Shown in pieces: positions 1,953 to 20,794 of a stretch of DNA of 64,000 nt. The stretch is from a virus. The DNA lies in IMG/VR virus record IMGVR_UViG_3300017754_001832. One strand, written 5' to 3'. The notes below the pieces were generated by a model that saw only the letters and a list, made by a program, of their open reading frames with translations, was not told where the DNA came from and searched no databases. Position 1 is the stretch's first letter; each line of letters begins with the position of its first letter. The translations under genes were made by a program, and so were the position numbers.

Positions 1953-3200
1953 ATGTCTAACCGCCCTTTCCCGCTCATGCTCGAAGCCTTCCCCGCGTTC
2001 GATCAATCCACGCTCCCGCCTATCCCGTTGCAGTGGGTTGACATGTCATGGCGCGGCGCCCGCTTCTCTGACTCGTGCCCGCAATTCGGCGCCACGCCAG
2101 AGGCCCTAGCGGGAACGGGAGTCGTGGTTGTCATCAATTGGGAAGACCGTTGCGGATGCGGACAAGACTATGTCGCAGTGCTGTATGATTGCGCTGGCGA
2201 GTGCGTCGAAGAGTGGGGCGGGGATGATTGGACCGAATGCCTTCACGCGGTCTCACGGCTTCGCAGGAAATGGGCGCCACTGCTTGCCGCGAACATTCGC
2301 GAAGCGGAGGAGGCCGAACGCAAGGCCGCCGCGCAACGTGAGGCAATCGCCAGAGCGGAGAAGGCCGCCGCAACGCCGCGCGCTCTTGTGGAGTTTCCCG
2401 ACTATCCCGCCGACTCGCTCCCGCCCCTGCCTACTGACACGCTCTGGCATGACGAGTCGTGGCATAATGACATGTGCCCCTGCTATCACTCCGCCGACGG
2501 ATTCGGCGTGTGGATTGACTGGCCCGAGTCGAAGGATCGGGAGTTGATCGGCTCTAAGCGTTTCTGTGTTTTCGACTATGAAGAAAACGCGCGCGGCATG
2601 AGCAAGGCCCGCGACTCGTTTGAGTGTGACACATGGGAGGAGGTTCTAGCCTTCATCAACGCCGCGCGCGAAAGTCTCGGCGCCGACATCGCCAAGGGAT
2701 TCGGCGATGACATACAAGAGGCCGCCGCGTGGATTGCAGCGATGCACAAGGCGGGCAAGGCGTTCCATTGGGAAGACTCGCCCTATGACATAATCGAAAC
2801 AGTGAGCGGAAAACGCACGTTCACGGATGCGGAGTCTATCATCGTGAACGCATGCCGACTCCGTCTCTATGACTTCACGTGGCCCGCCGACTCGTGCCCG
2901 TGTGGCGTGTCGCTGGCGCTCATGTCAAAGGAAACGATAGACGGCATGTGCGCCGAATATACGAAGCTACTCGAACGCTTCGAGTTGCCTAGCATGTCGG
3001 CGGACGAATTATATTTTGAGATCGGCGCCGTTATTGAGGGACTCGAGTCTGCCTTCATCACGCCAGAGCGCGCGGCCAAGGGCGGACTAGAAGAGGCGAT
3101 GAAGCACGTCCGCAGTTTTTCCGTTGATTGGGAAGACCGAGTCGACTCGTTTCAAACCGTGAAAGACGCATTCCCCGCGCTTCGTTCGCTGATCTACTGA
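1953..3200 (+). CDS. hypothetical early protein (415 aa), rich in Asp-Ser and Glu-Ser dipeptides
   Basis: Long ORF in which GACTCG/GAGTCG sequences are frequent. Confidence 0.6.
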   Translation: MSNRPFPLMLEAFPAFDQSTLPPIPLQWVDMSWRGARFSDSCPQFGATPEALAGTGVVVVINWEDRCGCGQDYVAVLYDCAGECVEEWGGDDWTECLHAVSRLRRKWAPLLAANIREAEEAERKAAAQREAIARAEKAAATPRALVEFPDYPADSLPPLPTDTLWHDESWHNDMCPCYHSADGFGVWIDWPESKDRELIGSKRFCVFDYEENARGMSKARDSFECDTWEEVLAFINAARESLGADIAKGFGDDIQEAAAWIAAMHKAGKAFHWEDSPYDIIETVSGKRTFTDAESIIVNACRLRLYDFTWPADSCPCGVSLALMSKETIDGMCAEYTKLLERFELPSMSADELYFEIGAVIEGLESAFITPERAAKGGLEEAMKHVRSFSVDWEDRVDSFQTVKDAFPALRSLIY

Positions 3201-3238
3201 GACCCTAGACTGCAGTCATCAACACAAGGAATCCGAAC

Positions 3239-3700
3239 ATGACTCACACTCCCGCCGCGCCAGAGATTGTCGCCGCGCGTCGACTCGTTCGCGACGCATG
3301 CCACGAACTAGGCGCCCTTCCGAATCACGTCTCGCACTGGAATCCGATCCGACTCGCCATGGCCGCCGACAACGTGCGAGCGGGCCTCACAACGCTAGGC
3401 CACAAGCTGGCGCCGAACGAAGAGGCCGCCTATTGGCGCCAGTGCGCAGAGCATGCGGAGGAACGCGCGGCGCTTCTCTCCCTCTTCACGGCTCGCCTAT
3501 TGGCGGAGACTCATGATTGGGCGTGGAGCCTTTGCGGCGAACGTGAAGGACTCGACTCGTTGCGCGCGGATTGCCTCACGGCTCTACAGGCTCACGCCGA
3601 ATCAGGCGGCGCCACAACGGGCGATTTTCTGGCGTTGCTGGAGTCGCTCAAGTCTGAGTCCCTGCCCCACTTGAAACAGGCGGCCAATGCGAGCCGCTAA
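3239..3700 (+). CDS. hypothetical protein (153 aa)
   Basis: ORF. Confidence 0.5.
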   Translation: MTHTPAAPEIVAARRLVRDACHELGALPNHVSHWNPIRLAMAADNVRAGLTTLGHKLAPNEEAAYWRQCAEHAEERAALLSLFTARLLAETHDWAWSLCGEREGLDSLRADCLTALQAHAESGGATTGDFLALLESLKSESLPHLKQAANASR

Positions 3701-10829: not shown

Positions 10830-11084
10830 ATGAGCATTCGTTGGACCCTCTGGACTGCCGGCGCAGCCTACCGCCTTTGGGTGGGTCTGATGATCGGCGC
10901 CGCGATCATGGGTGGCTGCGCCTCGCCGCCCAAATACAATTGTGCGTACTGGACACAGTTCGAGCCTGACATGCAGGCGAAAAGGGAGTATTGCTTTCCC
11001 GACTGCCCGTCCTGCGGCCCTGTGATCCGCAGCCGGAACCCCTACGAAGGACTCAAGCGCGATGTCGAGCCACAAGGAACTTGA
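10830..11084 (+). CDS. putative lipoprotein (84 aa, Cys-rich)
   Basis: N-terminal hydrophobic segment ending IMGGC (lipobox-like). Confidence 0.4.
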   Translation: MSIRWTLWTAGAAYRLWVGLMIGAAIMGGCASPPKYNCAYWTQFEPDMQAKREYCFPDCPSCGPVIRSRNPYEGLKRDVEPQGT

Positions 11085-11265
11085 TTGGATTATCGAGCGG
11101 GCGCCCGTCACGAAGGCTATTCGCCGGGCACAAGACCTCTCGATCAACTTCTACTACCGGGCCGACATCGGCATGTCGGAACTCATGGATGCCTGCCACA
11201 GCATCTTCTATGCGCGCCTGGTCGAGGTGGACACGAAGCACTACGGCTGCGTGCAGGAGATGTGA
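11062..11265 (+). CDS. hypothetical protein (67 aa)
   Basis: ORF. Confidence 0.4.
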   Translation: MSSHKELDWIIERAPVTKAIRRAQDLSINFYYRADIGMSELMDACHSIFYARLVEVDTKHYGCVQEM

Positions 11266-11474
11266 TGAGCTACGCCGCACAAGTCAGAACCATGACCGCG
11301 TCCGAGCGGTTCGAGCTAGTCAACGCACTGCTCGCGATCTCGATCCAGCGCCACGGCCCGTTGGTGATCTCCCGAGCGGATGTCGCTCTCGAACTCATGG
11401 GGGCCGCGCACAAGACGGTCTACATCAAAGACCTGCCCAACGGCGACTTCGAGGTGATGGTTCACAAGCAATGA
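11265..11474 (+). CDS. hypothetical protein (69 aa)
   Basis: ATG inside the track ORF 11085..11474. Its stop overlaps the next start. Confidence 0.4.
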   Translation: MSYAAQVRTMTASERFELVNALLAISIQRHGPLVISRADVALELMGAAHKTVYIKDLPNGDFEVMVHKQ

Positions 11475-12088
11475 CCCGGCGCGAGCAGATCGAAGCGAAG
11501 ATCGCGGCCCGATCCCACTACGAGGATCGCGGATACGAGACGCCATGCCGTATCTGGGATGGCCCCAAGAGCGGCGACCCCGAGAAGACGCGGGGCCACG
11601 GCTACGGGCGCATGAACCTCGACGGCGCAACTGTTGCAGTTCACATCGCCGCGTGGGTCAACGTGAACGGCCTGATCCCGCCGCGAAAACAACTCGACCA
11701 TTTGTGCCATCAACGGGACTGCTGCGAGGAGCGACACTTGAAGCTGAAGACGCACAAGCAGAATCAGCGCAACAAGAAACCGAAGCTCTCCCTCGTCGAG
11801 GTTGACCTGGCCCACATCGAACAGCGCGTGGTCGCGGCGATGATGGATGCGAAGCCCCTGCACCGGATGCCCGGCCAGCACGAGCCGGTCGAATACGGCC
11901 ACACGATCACAGGCCGTATGCGCCGGGCCAACCCGAACCCGTGGGGTGGCTACAACGAGAACGTGCCGGCGCCTGACGGCTTCGACCCGACGAACCCGAG
12001 TGACTCCTCCTACAAGGACCAGGTCATCGGTCACGACATACCCGCAGACCGGCTTCCGCCGGCCGCGCCTATGGTGGAAGACGAATGA
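11471..12088 (+). CDS. HNH homing endonuclease (205 aa)
   Basis: GYGRMNLDGATVAVHIAAW...QLDHLCHQRDCCEERHL is the classic phage HNH (HNH_3-type) motif. Confidence 0.8.
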   Translation: MTRREQIEAKIAARSHYEDRGYETPCRIWDGPKSGDPEKTRGHGYGRMNLDGATVAVHIAAWVNVNGLIPPRKQLDHLCHQRDCCEERHLKLKTHKQNQRNKKPKLSLVEVDLAHIEQRVVAAMMDAKPLHRMPGQHEPVEYGHTITGRMRRANPNPWGGYNENVPAPDGFDPTNPSDSSYKDQVIGHDIPADRLPPAAPMVEDE

Positions 12089-13220: not shown

Positions 13221-13613
13221 ATGGCGGCCCGCTCTAAAACTCCCAAGCTCGACGCTGCCGTGGCCTGGCTCGCACAGGCGAAGAAGGGCGAGCGTATGGA
13301 GGTCTGGCGTGGTCATCTCGACCGTGCCTGCGCCACCCCCGAGTCCAACATGAGCAACGCGCAGCGGCGGACCCACCAAGCCGCCGCGCGCAAGGCCCGC
13401 AAGCTGGGGAAGAAGCGGCCCGACCCGCCCGATCCATACGCCAAGGTCCGCGAGGAAGCCCGACTCATGATCGAGTGGCTTGAGCGCAATGAGCTTCGCG
13501 GTCTGATCGAGATCAAGATCACGGTGATGGATGCGAAGCTGCACGACCGCATCTACGAAGTCGAGTGCGCGGTCCAACGCAACGGGCTTGCAGCGGTGAG
13601 GGCACGTCGATGA
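13221..13613 (+). CDS. hypothetical basic protein (130 aa)
   Basis: ORF. Confidence 0.45.
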   Translation: MAARSKTPKLDAAVAWLAQAKKGERMEVWRGHLDRACATPESNMSNAQRRTHQAAARKARKLGKKRPDPPDPYAKVREEARLMIEWLERNELRGLIEIKITVMDAKLHDRIYEVECAVQRNGLAAVRARR

Positions 13614-14728
13614 TCCCAGCATACTACAACGAGTTCGACGAGTTCGCTGCGCAGTGGCTCCGCAACCTCATCGCGGCAGACAAGATCGCGCCCGGCGAAG
13701 TCGACTCACGCGATCTCTGGGACGTTGCGCCCGATGATCTCAAGGGCTTCGGCCAAGTCCACCTCTGCGCCGGCATCGGCATCTGGTCGCACGTCATACG
13801 ACAACTAGGAGTCCCTGATGACTACCCAATCTGGTCCGCATCCTTCCCTTGCCAGCCTTTCAGCGCGGCAGGTCAAGGACTTGGGTTTGCTGACGAGCGG
13901 CACCTATGGCCCGCCGGGCTTCACGTCATTCGAGAGCGACGCCCTGTCCGCATCGTTGGCGAACAGTCTTCAGCGAAAGCTGGACTCGCTTGGATGGAGC
14001 TTGTTCAAGCTGATCTGGAAGCCGAGGGCTATGCCGTCGGGCGGACAGATATATGCGCTGCGGGGTTCGGCGAGGCCCCAGGAAGATCGTACCATATTCG
14101 TCAACGACTCTATTGGGGTGCTGCGCAGTTGGCCGACGCCGACAAGCCGCGATCACAAAGACGGCGCGTCAATCGGGACGGCGGAGACGAATGGCTTGCT
14201 CGGGCGGGTGGCTTGGCTAGCAGGCTGGCCGACAGCGGTAGCCTCCGACGAGAAGTGGCGCTACTCCAATCAGGACGCAGCACTTCGCAGGGCAGCGAGC
14301 GGCAAGCAGATGTGTCTGGAGTCGACGGCCCATCTCGCGGCGCCATTGAGTGGGTGGGCGAGCCCGACGGCATCCGACGGCTCCGGTGGACGAACGAAGA
14401 AAACCAAGGGCGGGGGCGGGGCCTACGTGGACGCACAGGCGAGGCTGGCGGGGTGGCCGACACCTCTGGCGGCGCCGACGGGCCCGGCGAGCCACGGGCA
14501 GAGCAGCGGCAAGTATCGGGAGAAGGTTCTGGAGCTAGTCGGCGATCCGTCGATCTCATCCTCTGCAACGACCCCGAAGGTCCGGTTTACAGGCCGGTTG
14601 AGGTCGGGACATTCCCGCTGGCTTCAACGGATACCCACCGAGTGGGCCAACTATCTGCCTACGGCAACGCGCTCGACACGGAAGCCGCCAAAGCCTTCTT
14701 CGGGGCGTGGATCGAGCACGCCCCGTAG
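13610..14728 (+). pseudogene. DNA (cytosine-5)-methyltransferase, disrupted by two compensating frame changes; WPTP-repeat target-recognition domain is in an alternative frame
   Basis: Frame A carries motif IV (FPCQPFSAAG), the ENV-like region and AAGFGEAP. Frame B, from about 14080, carries PQEDRTIFV (motif VIII), the WPTPxxxD repeats and RLRSGHSRWLQRIPTEW (like RLTPRECARLQGFPDDW). The C-terminal YGNALDTEAAKAFFGAWI (motif X) is back in frame A. Confidence 0.65.
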
Positions 14729-14819
14729 GAAACTTGATCGGATTCTGGGTTGACTCCCTGATTATTGCCACCCCAAGCCCCGTGGTGTAAGGGTCTATGG
14801 CTAACCCGGAGGACGCAAC

Positions 14820-18436: not shown

Positions 18437-18914
18437 GCTCGGAAACAAGGGCCACGAGGACATGCTCGGTACGCCGAAGGAACGGCTCACCTCGAAGGAC
18501 ACGAACCCGAAGGACGCCGTCGGCGTGGCGAAGGTTTCGGAGTCCTGCATCCCGCAAGGGGTCATCGGCGAACTCGCCATCGCCATGCAGGAGGGCGCTC
18601 GCAAGTACGGGCGCCACAACTACCGGATCGCCGGGGTTCGCGCCTCGGTCTACTTCGATGCTCTCATGCGCCACAGCAAGGCGTGGTGGGAGGGCGAGGA
18701 CAACGATCCGGAGTCGGGCGCGAGCCACATCACCAAGGCCATCGCGACCCTCGTGGTCCTCCGCGATGCCATGATGAACGGCAAGATGACCGACGACCGC
18801 CCGCCGCCGATGACCGACCCCGATTGGCAGCGAAAACTCAACGAACTTGCGAAAGGGCTCATCGAGAAGTATCCAGATGCCAAGCCCGCCTACACTCGCG
18901 AACCCCAGGAGTAG
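18426..18914 (+). CDS. protein resembling the N-terminal domain family found in phage dATP/dGTP diphosphohydrolases (162 aa)
   Basis: NPKDAVGVAKVSESCIPQGVIGELAIAMQEGARKYGRHNYR matches the NPKD...P...GA.KYG..NW pattern recalled for this MazG-associated domain. Homology call from memory. Confidence 0.4.
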   Translation: MTGKLGNKGHEDMLGTPKERLTSKDTNPKDAVGVAKVSESCIPQGVIGELAIAMQEGARKYGRHNYRIAGVRASVYFDALMRHSKAWWEGEDNDPESGASHITKAIATLVVLRDAMMNGKMTDDRPPPMTDPDWQRKLNELAKGLIEKYPDAKPAYTREPQE

Positions 18915-18919
18915 CCGTC

Positions 18920-20794
18920 ATGGCCGTCAAGCCCAAGTCACCGCAGATCACCAAAGCCCAACTCCAGAAGTGGGTGAACCTCGTAAACCGGCTTGACGGC
19001 AACGTCTCACGCGCGGCGGAAGAAGCAGGCATCTCCGCCCGCCAACTCAAGCGCCACCTCGACACCTGCAAGAAACGCGGCGTCGTTCCGCCGAAGCCCT
19101 TCAACCCCCAGAACGCCATCCGATCAACCGACATCGCCGACGACGAACTGCACGATGTCTGGAACGTCTACGAGCGATACGGATACGACGCACAAGCGAC
19201 CGCCGAAGCTCTCGGCATCCACGAGTCCTCCCTCCGCAACCGCATCAAGAAAGCGCAGCACAAGTTCGGCTACGTGAAGAAGTCCCTCGGGGTGACTCAC
19301 GCGCAGGCCGCCGCGCCGCTGCCGCTCCCCGACGCCGGCAAGATCAACTACTTCATGCTGACGACGGCGCAGAACAACACCAAGGTCCACGACGCAACGT
19401 GGGCTTCGGGCATCAACCTCGCGAAGCACTACGACGCCGAGATCAAGGTCTCGACCTTCACCTACATCGGCAACGAGGAAGGCTCGCAGAAGCGCGGGCA
19501 CGAGAAGTCGGGCGAGGCCATGGGCCGCAAGGTCGAGGACCGCTGGTATGATCCGCGCGTCGTCCCGTACATCTCCGACGAGTTCCAACAGCTTGCGCCG
19601 GGTCTCGTGTGGTGCGGCCACTCCAACACACTGCCGACCGCGTCCGACCCGCTCCGTGGCACGCAGTCTCTCAATGGCCGTGCGTCTGGTGTCTGGCCCC
19701 ACACGCGGATCGAGATGCGCCCGGTCGCCACGGCTGCCGGTGAAGCCACCAAGTTCAACTTCACGACCGGCGCCGTCACGCTGCGCAACTACATCCAGAA
19801 GCGGGCCGGCATCGCGGCGGAGTTCTACCACTGCTTCGGCTTCCTGCTCGTCGCCGTCGACTCGAACGGCAATTGGTGGTGCCGCCAACTCAACGCCGAT
19901 AGCGAAGGCAACATCTACGACCTCGACCTGCTCGCGACTCCCGAAGGCGTGTTCGAGTGGATCGACGAGAAGAAGGGCGGCCTCGAAGGTCTGGTCTATG
20001 GCGACATCCACCGCTCGAAGATCGACGAGACGATCCGCGATGCGACGTGGGGCCCCGGCGGCCTCGTGGACTTCCTCAAGCCCAAGGTGCAGGTCTTCCA
20101 CGACCTCCTCAACTTCAACCCGTCGCACCACTCGCGCAAAGACCCGCACGAGATGTATAAGCAGCGCAAGCGCGCTGAAGACCTGGTGTACGGCGAGATC
20201 GAGGGCGACGGCTCGTTCCTCGATTGGACGCACCGCCCGTGGTCGCGCGAAGTCGTGGTCGACTCCAACCACCACCGTCACCTCGACCGCTTCCTGAAGG
20301 AAGTCGATTGGCGTGACGACCTCAACAATGCGCGCGTCATCCTCGACATGAACCTCGCGTGGCTCGACGCCATCGACAAGGGCGAGGAAGAGGACTTCCT
20401 TGCCTACGAGTGGCAGATCAGGAAGATGGGCTACGGCAAGCACGCCCACTTCATGAACCTCACCAGCGAGAAGCCCGAGAAGCTGAGCCTCGTGCTCTGC
20501 AAGGGCAACGGCGGGGGTATCGAGGTCGGCGCGCACCACGGGGATCGCGGGCCGAACGGCGCACGCGGCACGCCGCAGAACCTATCGAAGATGGGCCGCA
20601 AGAATGTCATCGGCGACAAGCACTCGCCGGGCATCTGGGGTGGCACCTACGTTGCAGGCATGACCGGCAAGCCGCGTCAGGGCTACAACATCGGGCCGGG
20701 CTCGTGGGCTGCCGCGCACGTGCCGATTTACCCGAACGGAAAGCGGCAAGTCCTGTTGTTCTGGAAAGGCATGCCGCACGAACCGCGCGGTTAG
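18920..20794 (+). CDS. large hypothetical protein (624 aa) with an N-terminal HTH-like segment and possible phosphoesterase-like motifs
   Basis: ATG at 18920 follows the upstream stop. The track ORF begins 79 aa earlier, overlapping the upstream gene. Contains VYGDIHRS and GAHHGDRG. Confidence 0.5.
   Translation: MAVKPKSPQITKAQLQKWVNLVNRLDGNVSRAAEEAGISARQLKRHLDTCKKRGVVPPKPFNPQNAIRSTDIADDELHDVWNVYERYGYDAQATAEALGIHESSLRNRIKKAQHKFGYVKKSLGVTHAQAAAPLPLPDAGKINYFMLTTAQNNTKVHDATWASGINLAKHYDAEIKVSTFTYIGNEEGSQKRGHEKSGEAMGRKVEDRWYDPRVVPYISDEFQQLAPGLVWCGHSNTLPTASDPLRGTQSLNGRASGVWPHTRIEMRPVATAAGEATKFNFTTGAVTLRNYIQKRAGIAAEFYHCFGFLLVAVDSNGNWWCRQLNADSEGNIYDLDLLATPEGVFEWIDEKKGGLEGLVYGDIHRSKIDETIRDATWGPGGLVDFLKPKVQVFHDLLNFNPSHHSRKDPHEMYKQRKRAEDLVYGEIEGDGSFLDWTHRPWSREVVVDSNHHRHLDRFLKEVDWRDDLNNARVILDMNLAWLDAIDKGEEEDFLAYEWQIRKMGYGKHAHFMNLTSEKPEKLSLVLCKGNGGGIEVGAHHGDRGPNGARGTPQNLSKMGRKNVIGDKHSPGIWGGTYVAGMTGKPRQGYNIGPGSWAAAHVPIYPNGKRQVLLFWKGMPHEPRG

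Follow-up and report, generated by a model that had tools for sequence, protein, structure and literature searches.

Split and nested C5 cytosine methyltransferases and a proposed phage case

M.EcoHK31I of E. coli HK31 (isoschizomer M.EaeI; Lee, Kam & Shaw 1995) is described as a C5 cytosine methyltransferase composed of two polypeptides. Its beta chain carries motif IX and is translated from a different frame within the gene of the alpha chain, and neither chain can be dispensed with (PMC2836561, PMC3404938). Split C5 methyltransferases are able to complement as fragments, and in M.AquI the alpha subunit comprises motifs I-VIII together with a portion of the variable region, the beta subunit providing the remainder of this region and motifs IX-X (PMC3404938). 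Here a pair of nested genes, gene A and gene B, is described from a viral DNA of 64,000 nucleotides (nt) (IMG/VR record IMGVR_UViG_3300017754_001832; this whole stretch is referred to as the window). Gene A is predicted to encode the catalytic part of a C5 methyltransferase, and gene B, read in the +1 frame, encodes a protein with WPTP repeats. It is proposed with reasonable confidence that both same-strand genes are translated and that their products assemble into one 5-methylcytosine (m5C) methyltransferase.

When compared by description the pair is like M.EcoHK31I in that the gene of the first polypeptide contains the coding sequence of the second, out of frame and on the same strand, an arrangement that the phage pair shows at 86 loci collected through frame A and 80 collected through frame B. 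Frame A shows motifs I-VIII as well as motif X, and a near-invariant frame-B SRWLxxxPxEW lies just before motif X, without a profile link to motif IX. Both chains of M.EcoHK31I are needed for activity and the N-terminal part of its nested protein matters for association; by analogy the same may hold for the phage pair. Unlike in M.EcoHK31I, where the nested open reading frame (ORF) takes up 176 of 309 codons, the phage nested ORF occupies about 80-90% of its host gene (311 of 372 codons), and the middle of the host frame is an unconstrained, putative linker. The phage and prophage enzyme is also an orphan, with no restriction partner seen nearby, and its family has an unusual N-terminus (AYYNExD...WLRNLI). 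As in M.AquI, a C5 methyltransferase would be formed from two polypeptides that are split in or near the variable region, and a natural fusion described below (L089) resembles the M.AquI split. The M.AquI genes are, however, described as consecutive rather than nested, and motif X of M.AquI goes together with motif IX.

Phage genes that are nested out of frame on the same strand include Rz/Rz1, which encode the spanin subunits, and the overlapping genes of phiX174, and the Rz and Rz1 products act together in one complex. These overlaps are much shorter and do not divide the domains of one ancestral enzyme between frames, whereas the methyltransferase pair is open in two frames over about 0.7-1.1 kb with double constraint at both ends. 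The Rz/Rz1 overlap is mentioned in the literature (PMC11445585), and a search limited to open-access papers found none that describes the methyltransferase overlap. By analogy gene B may be regarded as a nested subunit of the M.EcoHK31I type, with a notable length, double constraint and a very wide distribution.

Layout of the two genes and the start of gene B

The ORF map of the window shows frames A and B both open on the + strand with an overlap of 911 nt, which bears out the figure of about 900 nt given in an earlier note on this DNA. Gene B lies mostly within gene A and its stop is located 25 nt beyond the gene A end:

13610-14728, + strand: gene A (frame A ORF 13565/13610-14728; 372 amino acids, aa), predicted catalytic (large-domain) subunit of a C5 cytosine methyltransferase, from matches to PF00145, TIGR00675 and phrog_363
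13818-14753, + strand: gene B (311 aa, read at +1 with respect to A), WPTP-repeat protein and putative target-recognition or small-domain subunit, from its homologs and purifying selection on frame B
13807-13820, + strand: gene B start signals within gene A, namely the Shine-Dalgarno sequence AGGAG (13807-13811) and the ATG (13818)

Gene B has a start of its own. The AGGAG is positioned 6 nt ahead of the ATG and comes directly behind a +1-frame stop, TAG at 13806-13808; frame A encodes the AGGAG stretch with the codons CTA and GGA. The site is kept in the close relatives L003-L006, the last of which is a near-identical 3.4-kb contig in the JGI metagenome 3300022407. In many other lineages a conserved AGGAG and ATG occur 125 nt before PCQ, the ATG being preceded by GAAAGGAGTATTGAAG, which in frame A reads D-E-R-S-I-E-D and includes an AGG arginine codon. 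Called B proteins begin at two recurrent positions of the profile.

Selection on the two frames

Among close relatives, the variable sites of gene nt 1-450 fall at the wobble position of frame A. From gene nt 541 to 990 (window 14150-14599) they fall at position 1 of frame A, which is the wobble position of frame B, and from 991 to 1080 there is nearly no change. When the window is compared with its relative L003, the changed codons of the N-terminus (13610-13817) comprise 20 synonymous and 7 non-synonymous changes in frame A against 1 and 24 in frame B; in the middle (14127-14545) the counts are 5 and 46 in frame A and 37 and 15 in frame B. Purifying selection is exerted along the gene in the order A, then B, then A. 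These codon-position patterns confirm this order, and the central idea of the earlier note, a C5 methyltransferase with its parts spread over two frames, holds.

The third-base entropy at fourfold-degenerate sites of frame A, determined over 83 divergent loci, shows where the two frames are constrained at once. It amounts to 1.75 bits before the B ORF, to 0.99 bits in the overlap with the B N-terminal region (p = 8e-5 relative to the region before B) and to 0.51 bits in the overlap with the B C-terminal block (p = 3e-7), and after the B stop it is again 1.75 bits. Within the C-terminal overlap several of these frame-A sites show no variation across 64-82 loci. Because the fourfold sites of frame A are frozen there, both ends of the overlap are truly dual-coding, and the middle codes in frame B only, with frame A merely held open.

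Conservation of both open frames

At all 78 distant viral loci, which share about 40-45% identity in frame A and have a guanine-cytosine (GC) content of 53-68%, the +1 frame stays open along 90% of gene A on average, against 19% for the +2 frame. Stops in the +1 frame are absent from 86 of the 86 loci collected through frame A, in the N-terminal region (from PCQ) and the middle region alike, where shuffling of synonymous frame-A codons leads to an expectation of 1.3-1.4 stops per region and, for each region of a locus, a P(0) of about 0.23-0.27. Stops in the +2 frame agree with the shuffle expectation. The openness of the +1 frame is far beyond chance and shows that selection keeps it open. 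Frame A likewise has no stop in its middle in any of 82 loci, against 2.83 expected from synonymous shuffles of frame B (mean P(0) = 0.058). The 80 loci collected through frame B come from a search of bacterial genomes with the B profile, and each of them has B nested at +1 in an A-type gene; local disruptions are seen in a few, e.g. L123.

Alignment of the gene to four independently assembled contigs, one from a JGI metagenome and three from Logan runs, shows 85-99% nucleotide identity and no indel, and sequencing error and decay are therefore excluded. Real indels are found in occasional relatives (L123, P0392, P0400).

The gene pair is conserved across thousands of phages and prophages. It is present in the cultured phages N15, Salmonella phage epsilon15, Salmonella phage W5_chr3, E. 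coli phage K1G and Xanthomonas phage PhiXhv-28, where it has been annotated in different ways. In epsilon15 (L002:2501-3670) the annotated methylase gene contains an unannotated +1 ORF of the B family (2595-3611, 338 aa), and the frame-A C-terminus has an additional insertion before GYGNAI. Gene 58 of N15 (L087:1002-2012) likewise contains an unannotated B-family +1 ORF, 1291-1938, listed here from a TTG. W5_chr3 (L088:522-1659) has only the +1 ORF annotated, as a 'Mte8-like protein', with the methyltransferase frame omitted, and in K1G (L091:579-1403), K1H, K1ind2 and PhiXhv-28 both ORFs are annotated. The few GenBank records that list both ORFs, such as those of K1G and PhiXhv-28, carry no interpretation of them. 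Among the loci from bacterial genomes (L092-L171), the pair also occurs in prophage regions of numerous Proteobacteria, such as Pseudomonas, Brucella/Ochrobactrum, Paraburkholderia, Comamonas, Desulfovibrio, Yersinia, Morganella and Klebsiella. It was further seen in a few metagenome-assembled genomes binned as Flavobacteriaceae, Kiritimatiellae, Phycisphaerales and Woesearchaeota, occurrences that may be binning artefacts.

The predicted catalytic chain encoded by gene A

The conserved parts of frame A are found at either side of a variable middle:

13760-14116, + strand: conserved catalytic motifs, from invariant columns (frame-A alignment A1), alignment to M.HhaI and substitutions at the frame-A wobble position
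13760-13789: motif I-like HLCAGIGIWS
13844-13864: motif IV FPCQPFS, invariant in alignment A1 and placed on F79-P-C-Q of M.HhaI
13958-13966: motif VI GEQ, in place of ENV, aligned with the M.HhaI ENV
14054-14071: CAAGFG
14093-14116: motif VIII HIRQRLYW, placed on the M.HhaI QKRERIY by the family profile
14117-14548, + strand: middle, rich in Arg and Gly and variable in length, open and without constraint at the amino-acid level
14549-14725, + strand: conserved C-terminus VDLILCND...YRPVEVGTFPLA...RVGQLSAYGNAL, starting at about 14549
14660-14674: motif X YGNAL (GNA), within the C-terminus

PF00145 matches residues 71-118 of gene A with 28.2 bits (cut-off 22), and over the same residues TIGR00675 scores 23, far under its cut-off of 100.65. 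The Pfam and TIGR models cover just the N-terminal half of gene A, and its whole length matches phrog_363, 'DNA methyltransferase', with an E of 4e-54. More than 6700 homologs of frame A have the N- and C-terminal blocks in one ORF. The profile of the frame-A family covers M.HhaI residues 71-172, and in alignment A1 the residues E118, Q119, R164 and R166 are invariant. The replacement of ENV by GEQ extends throughout the family, as does the unusual N-terminus, in which AYYNExD...WLRNLI is followed by the motif I-like FAGIGxWS. An AlphaFold2 model of the relative P0382 has a large domain with a Rossmann-like fold and a predicted local distance difference test score (pLDDT) of about 90. In Foldseek this model returns M.HaeIII and M.HhaI as the top PDB matches with a probability of 1.0, a result that bears on the large domain only, and on this modelling the N-terminal domain of gene A is predicted to adopt the C5 methyltransferase fold.

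The amino-acid conservation of the frame-A middle is 0.27-0.46, and the segment would serve as a linker from motif VIII to the C-terminal part. Between motifs VIII and X the gene A polypeptide has no conserved target recognition domain and no motif IX. In the C-terminus C319, D321, R328, P329, G333, P336, L337, G352, N353 and A354 are invariant in alignment A1.

This map refines the one drawn in the earlier note. The PCQ, the ENV-like motif (GEQ), CAAGFG and the terminal YGNAL do lie in frame A, and the four W-x-T/P-P repeats that had been noticed in the +1 frame are located at 14127-14477. Motif VIII had been read as PQEDRTIFV in frame B, but the family profile assigns it to HIRQRLYW of frame A. 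The C4 run at which the frame was thought to change is present (GGCCCCAGG, 14074-14082), but frame A is still the conserved frame about 35 nt beyond it, because this motif VIII is encoded there in frame A. A return to frame A had been suggested at 14640-14670, but the conserved frame-A C-terminus already begins at about 14549; since it overlaps the GRLRSGHSRWLQRIPTEW block of frame B, 14640-14670 is conserved in both frames and offers no simple point of return.

The nested protein encoded by gene B

The features of gene B, read in frame B, are the following:

13857-14078, + strand: conserved N-terminal region, dual-coded with motifs IV-VIII of frame A
14127-14477, + strand: repeat region with four W-x-T/P-P-x-x-x-D units, candidate target recognition region
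14127-14165: repeat 1, SWPTPTSRD
within 14196-14249: repeat 2, GWPTAVASD
14352-14378: repeat 3, GWASPTASD
14451-14477: repeat 4, GWPTPLAAP
14592-14645: GRLRSGHSRWLQRIPTEW
14592-14675, + strand: C-terminal block GRLRSGHSRWLQRIPTEW-ANYLPTATRS, motif IX-like, dual-coded with the FPLA...YGNAL block of frame A

Homologs of gene B number more than 1500; they are about 300 aa long and have no Pfam domain. An exhaustive search with the B profile retrieved 20,767 cluster representatives at E<=1e-3, or 8,443 when the threshold is E<=1e-30. Frame B also matches phrog_1008 and phrog_31772, which are both labelled DNA methyltransferase. The N-terminal region is characterised by the invariant or near-invariant columns LSARQ.K.LGLLTSGTYG ... 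LF/YKLxWK ... P.G ... LRxS (alignments A2/A3), in a longer form LSARQAK.LGLLTSGTYG ... LYxLTWK ... PSGR ... LRAS.RRTS, and a second conserved element of the B alignments reads WPTPTTRDHKDG ... LLGRVAWLAGWPTP. The number of WPTP repeats differs between homologs.

The C-terminal block has the family consensus PARLTASGE.LTGS.AGMESGGQLNPAHSRWLMGLPxEWDDCAPTATRS and ends 5 codons before the YGNAL of frame A. W268, L269 and W276 do not vary among 103 sequences, in which R267 and P273 reach at least 90% conservation. The block resembles the motif IX region LNPxFxEWLMGxPxxW of single-chain phage C5 methyltransferases, an assignment that profile tools did not confirm. An AlphaFold2 model of frame B computed from the 103 sequences has a mean pLDDT of 58, and its sole confident part is an N-terminal helix and β-hairpin (pLDDT 78-90). 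A designed repeat protein retrieved with the B profile from PDB sequences (E = 0.13) was discarded as a meaningless match.

Natural fusions and variants

A search with an artificial A-B-A chimera found proteins in which motifs I-VIII of frame A continue in-frame into the B repeats and the motif IX-like block. In P0380, P0381, P0382, P0384, P0389, P0417 and P0438 the junction falls directly after HIRQRLYW. Among the top 120 matches of the chimera there is no protein with I-VIII, repeats, IX and X in a single frame, only A-to-B fusions that end in frame B. These fusions may be functional variants of the M.AquI type or pseudogenes generated by indels, and, functional or not, they show the canonical order of I-VIII, repeats and IX.

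A variant with altered frame connections is found at L089:1501-2567 (Logan SRR3314794), and the same protein occurs on 6 contigs. The ORF 1501-2547 joins motifs I-VIII, the WPTP repeats and the motif IX-like block, the B N-terminal region is left as a truncated ORF (1532-2152), and the frame-A C-terminus with motif X forms a separate ORF (2076-2567). A further variant, L090 (JGI 3300045924, Ga0496407_004931), has directly after the stop of the fused methyltransferase ORF a 159-aa ORF (2479-2958) with Cys/His motifs like those of HNH endonucleases. At the end of this ORF the B-type C-terminus occurs a second time (LPPEWDACGVTAMASLRPKPRRA). In L090 the ORF of the frame-A C-terminus (1992-2996) reads through this HNH-like ORF, and the locus has the appearance of a nested pair into which a mobile HNH element has inserted.

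A proposed single enzyme from two frames and the alternatives

The products of genes A and B probably cooperate as one split enzyme. In the proposed mechanism gene A would provide the catalytic large domain with motifs I-VIII and X; its middle, with a sequence dictated by frame B, would do no more than link these parts and bring motif X back. Translation of gene B would begin at its own Shine-Dalgarno sequence and ATG inside gene A and yield a product of about 310 aa with an N-terminal helix/hairpin region, variable WPTPxxxD repeats and a C-terminal 'LNPAHSRWLMGLPxEW' block. As this block takes the place of motif IX in single-chain enzymes, gene B would supply the small domain, that is target recognition and motif IX, and its N-terminal region may dock on A. 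In the phage the assembled enzyme would act as an orphan methylase that protects phage DNA by m5C methylation.

Several observations weigh against this proposal. The motif IX-like block has no PF00145 or NCBIfam match in frame B, in the B homologs or in the artificial A-B-A chimera, and a search of PDB sequences with the B profile found no solved C5 methyltransferase at E <= 10. Since there is no profile match, the label 'motif IX' rests on position, pattern and likeness to the LNPxFxEWLMGxPxxW motif of phage C5 methyltransferases. AlphaFold2 leaves the B repeat region unfolded (pLDDT 30-50), whether alone or in a natural fusion. In the model of the fusion P0382 the large domain is confident and the repeat region has a pLDDT of 30-45, so that no docking can be inferred and the model lends no structural support to a docked small domain; its input was a mixed alignment of A and B fragments, and B fragments misaligned into N-terminal columns may have degraded it. 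The natural fusions could be pseudogenes, because any indel in the dual-open region gives rise to a fusion ORF. Furthermore, M.EcoHK31I has its recognition domain assigned to the alpha and not the beta chain, whereas here the conserved variable or recognition region belongs to the nested frame.

The same structural negatives leave some room for an independent overprinted gene, a possibility that is regarded as unlikely. Gene A would then be a complete methyltransferase on its own with its Arg/Gly-rich middle as a loose DNA-binding segment, and gene B would share nothing with it except the DNA and have a function unrelated to methylation, for example in DNA binding, anti-defence or regulation. 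Besides the absence of a detectable sequence or fold match between B and C5 methyltransferases and of a docked small domain in the AlphaFold2 models, the N-terminal region of B is in its favour, since it is separately constrained and would have no obvious use in a simple recognition module. However, the frame-A middle is not conserved in its amino acids and evolves at the wobble position of frame B; gene A would therefore be left without a conserved recognition domain and motif IX. B was never found outside an A gene (80/80), and the PHROG families that it matches are annotated as DNA methyltransferase. Moreover, the order of I-VIII, repeats, IX-like block and X is that of single-chain enzymes, and the fusions join exactly after motif VIII.

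Programmed recoding, which the earlier note had considered, would have the ribosome shift by +1 once past motif VIII and by -1 ahead of motif X, giving a single A-B-A chain. In such a chain the motifs would stand in canonical order and the IX-like block would lie 5 residues ahead of YGNAL, and selection indeed follows A-B-A. This explanation is nevertheless very improbable. Frame B has its own Shine-Dalgarno sequence and ATG, is open and constrained from about 300 nt upstream of where entry is supposed and continues for about 100 nt past the supposed exit to its own stop at 14753, in both directions beyond the stretch that a shifted ribosome would use, and frame A is held open across the middle. 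The junction after motif VIII varies in sequence and length. An X XXY YYZ heptamer between the IX-like block and GNA is absent in 78 of 83 loci and in the window and occurs in the remaining 5. No slippery site is conserved, and the longest homopolymer in this interval is 4 across the loci scanned. To our knowledge there is no gene with two opposite programmed shifts.

Methyltransferase-like sequence in both frames would also be expected of a frameshifted pseudogene, and the indels of L123, P0392 and P0400 are real, but the conservation data already refute decay of the gene, an error of sequencing and phase variation at the homopolymeric C4 run. Both ORFs are complete and uninterrupted with no indel among five independent sequences, the catalytic residues are intact, the C4 run lies within conserved frame-A sequence, and all 166 distant loci as well as the cultured phages share the architecture. 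The two compensating shifts suggested in the earlier note thus have no counterpart in these sequences, and its idea of a switchable recognition domain finds no support.

The proposal of two nested genes that encode one enzyme accommodates the separate start of gene B, the selection on each frame in its own segments and the constant co-occurrence of A and B.

Genomic context

The gene pair is preceded by an ORF of 130 aa (13221-13613) without a PHROG match. Its TGA stop shares the sequence ATGA (13610-13613) with the ATG of gene A, an overlap that suggests translational coupling between the two. On the minus strand a 152-aa ORF (14110-14568) is open opposite the middle that is selected in frame B; it is probably a chance ORF in DNA of 63% GC, the GC content of the window. 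Two further genes of the window have PHROG matches:

10991-12088: HNH endonuclease (phrog_1872 and others)
18683-20794: DNA transfer protein (phrog_1745, E 4e-140)

These two genes, along with the many ORFs that lack a match, indicate that the window is a phage genome.

Significance for phage methyltransferases

The locus is a clean natural case of long dual coding in which the double constraint can be measured, and it provides a testable model for one enzyme that is split between reading frames, for which N15 and epsilon15 would be easy experimental models. Gene callers retain one of the two ORFs, with the result that some contigs contain A only and others B only, and the B family, with about 20,000 clusters at 50% identity, has neither a Pfam nor an NCBIfam model.

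There is a slightly better than even chance that the large phage and prophage family of 'DNA cytosine methyltransferases' as a whole is an obligate two-subunit enzyme with its specificity subunit in a nested +1 gene of 0.7-1 kb. If this is true, a family with thousands of database entries, among them N15 gp58, the epsilon15 methylase and K1G ORF31, would have the domains of one enzyme interleaved, with motifs I-VIII in frame 0, recognition and motif IX in frame +1 and motif X in frame 0 again. The annotated 'variable region' would be a linker and a by-product of the other frame, predictions of specificity from the annotated frame A protein would be read from a non-functional translation, and standard annotation would systematically drop a subunit. 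These dual-coding regions would then be among the longest and most widespread known in prokaryotic viruses, and M.EcoHK31I, a curiosity of one restriction-modification system, would extend to a major phage gene family.

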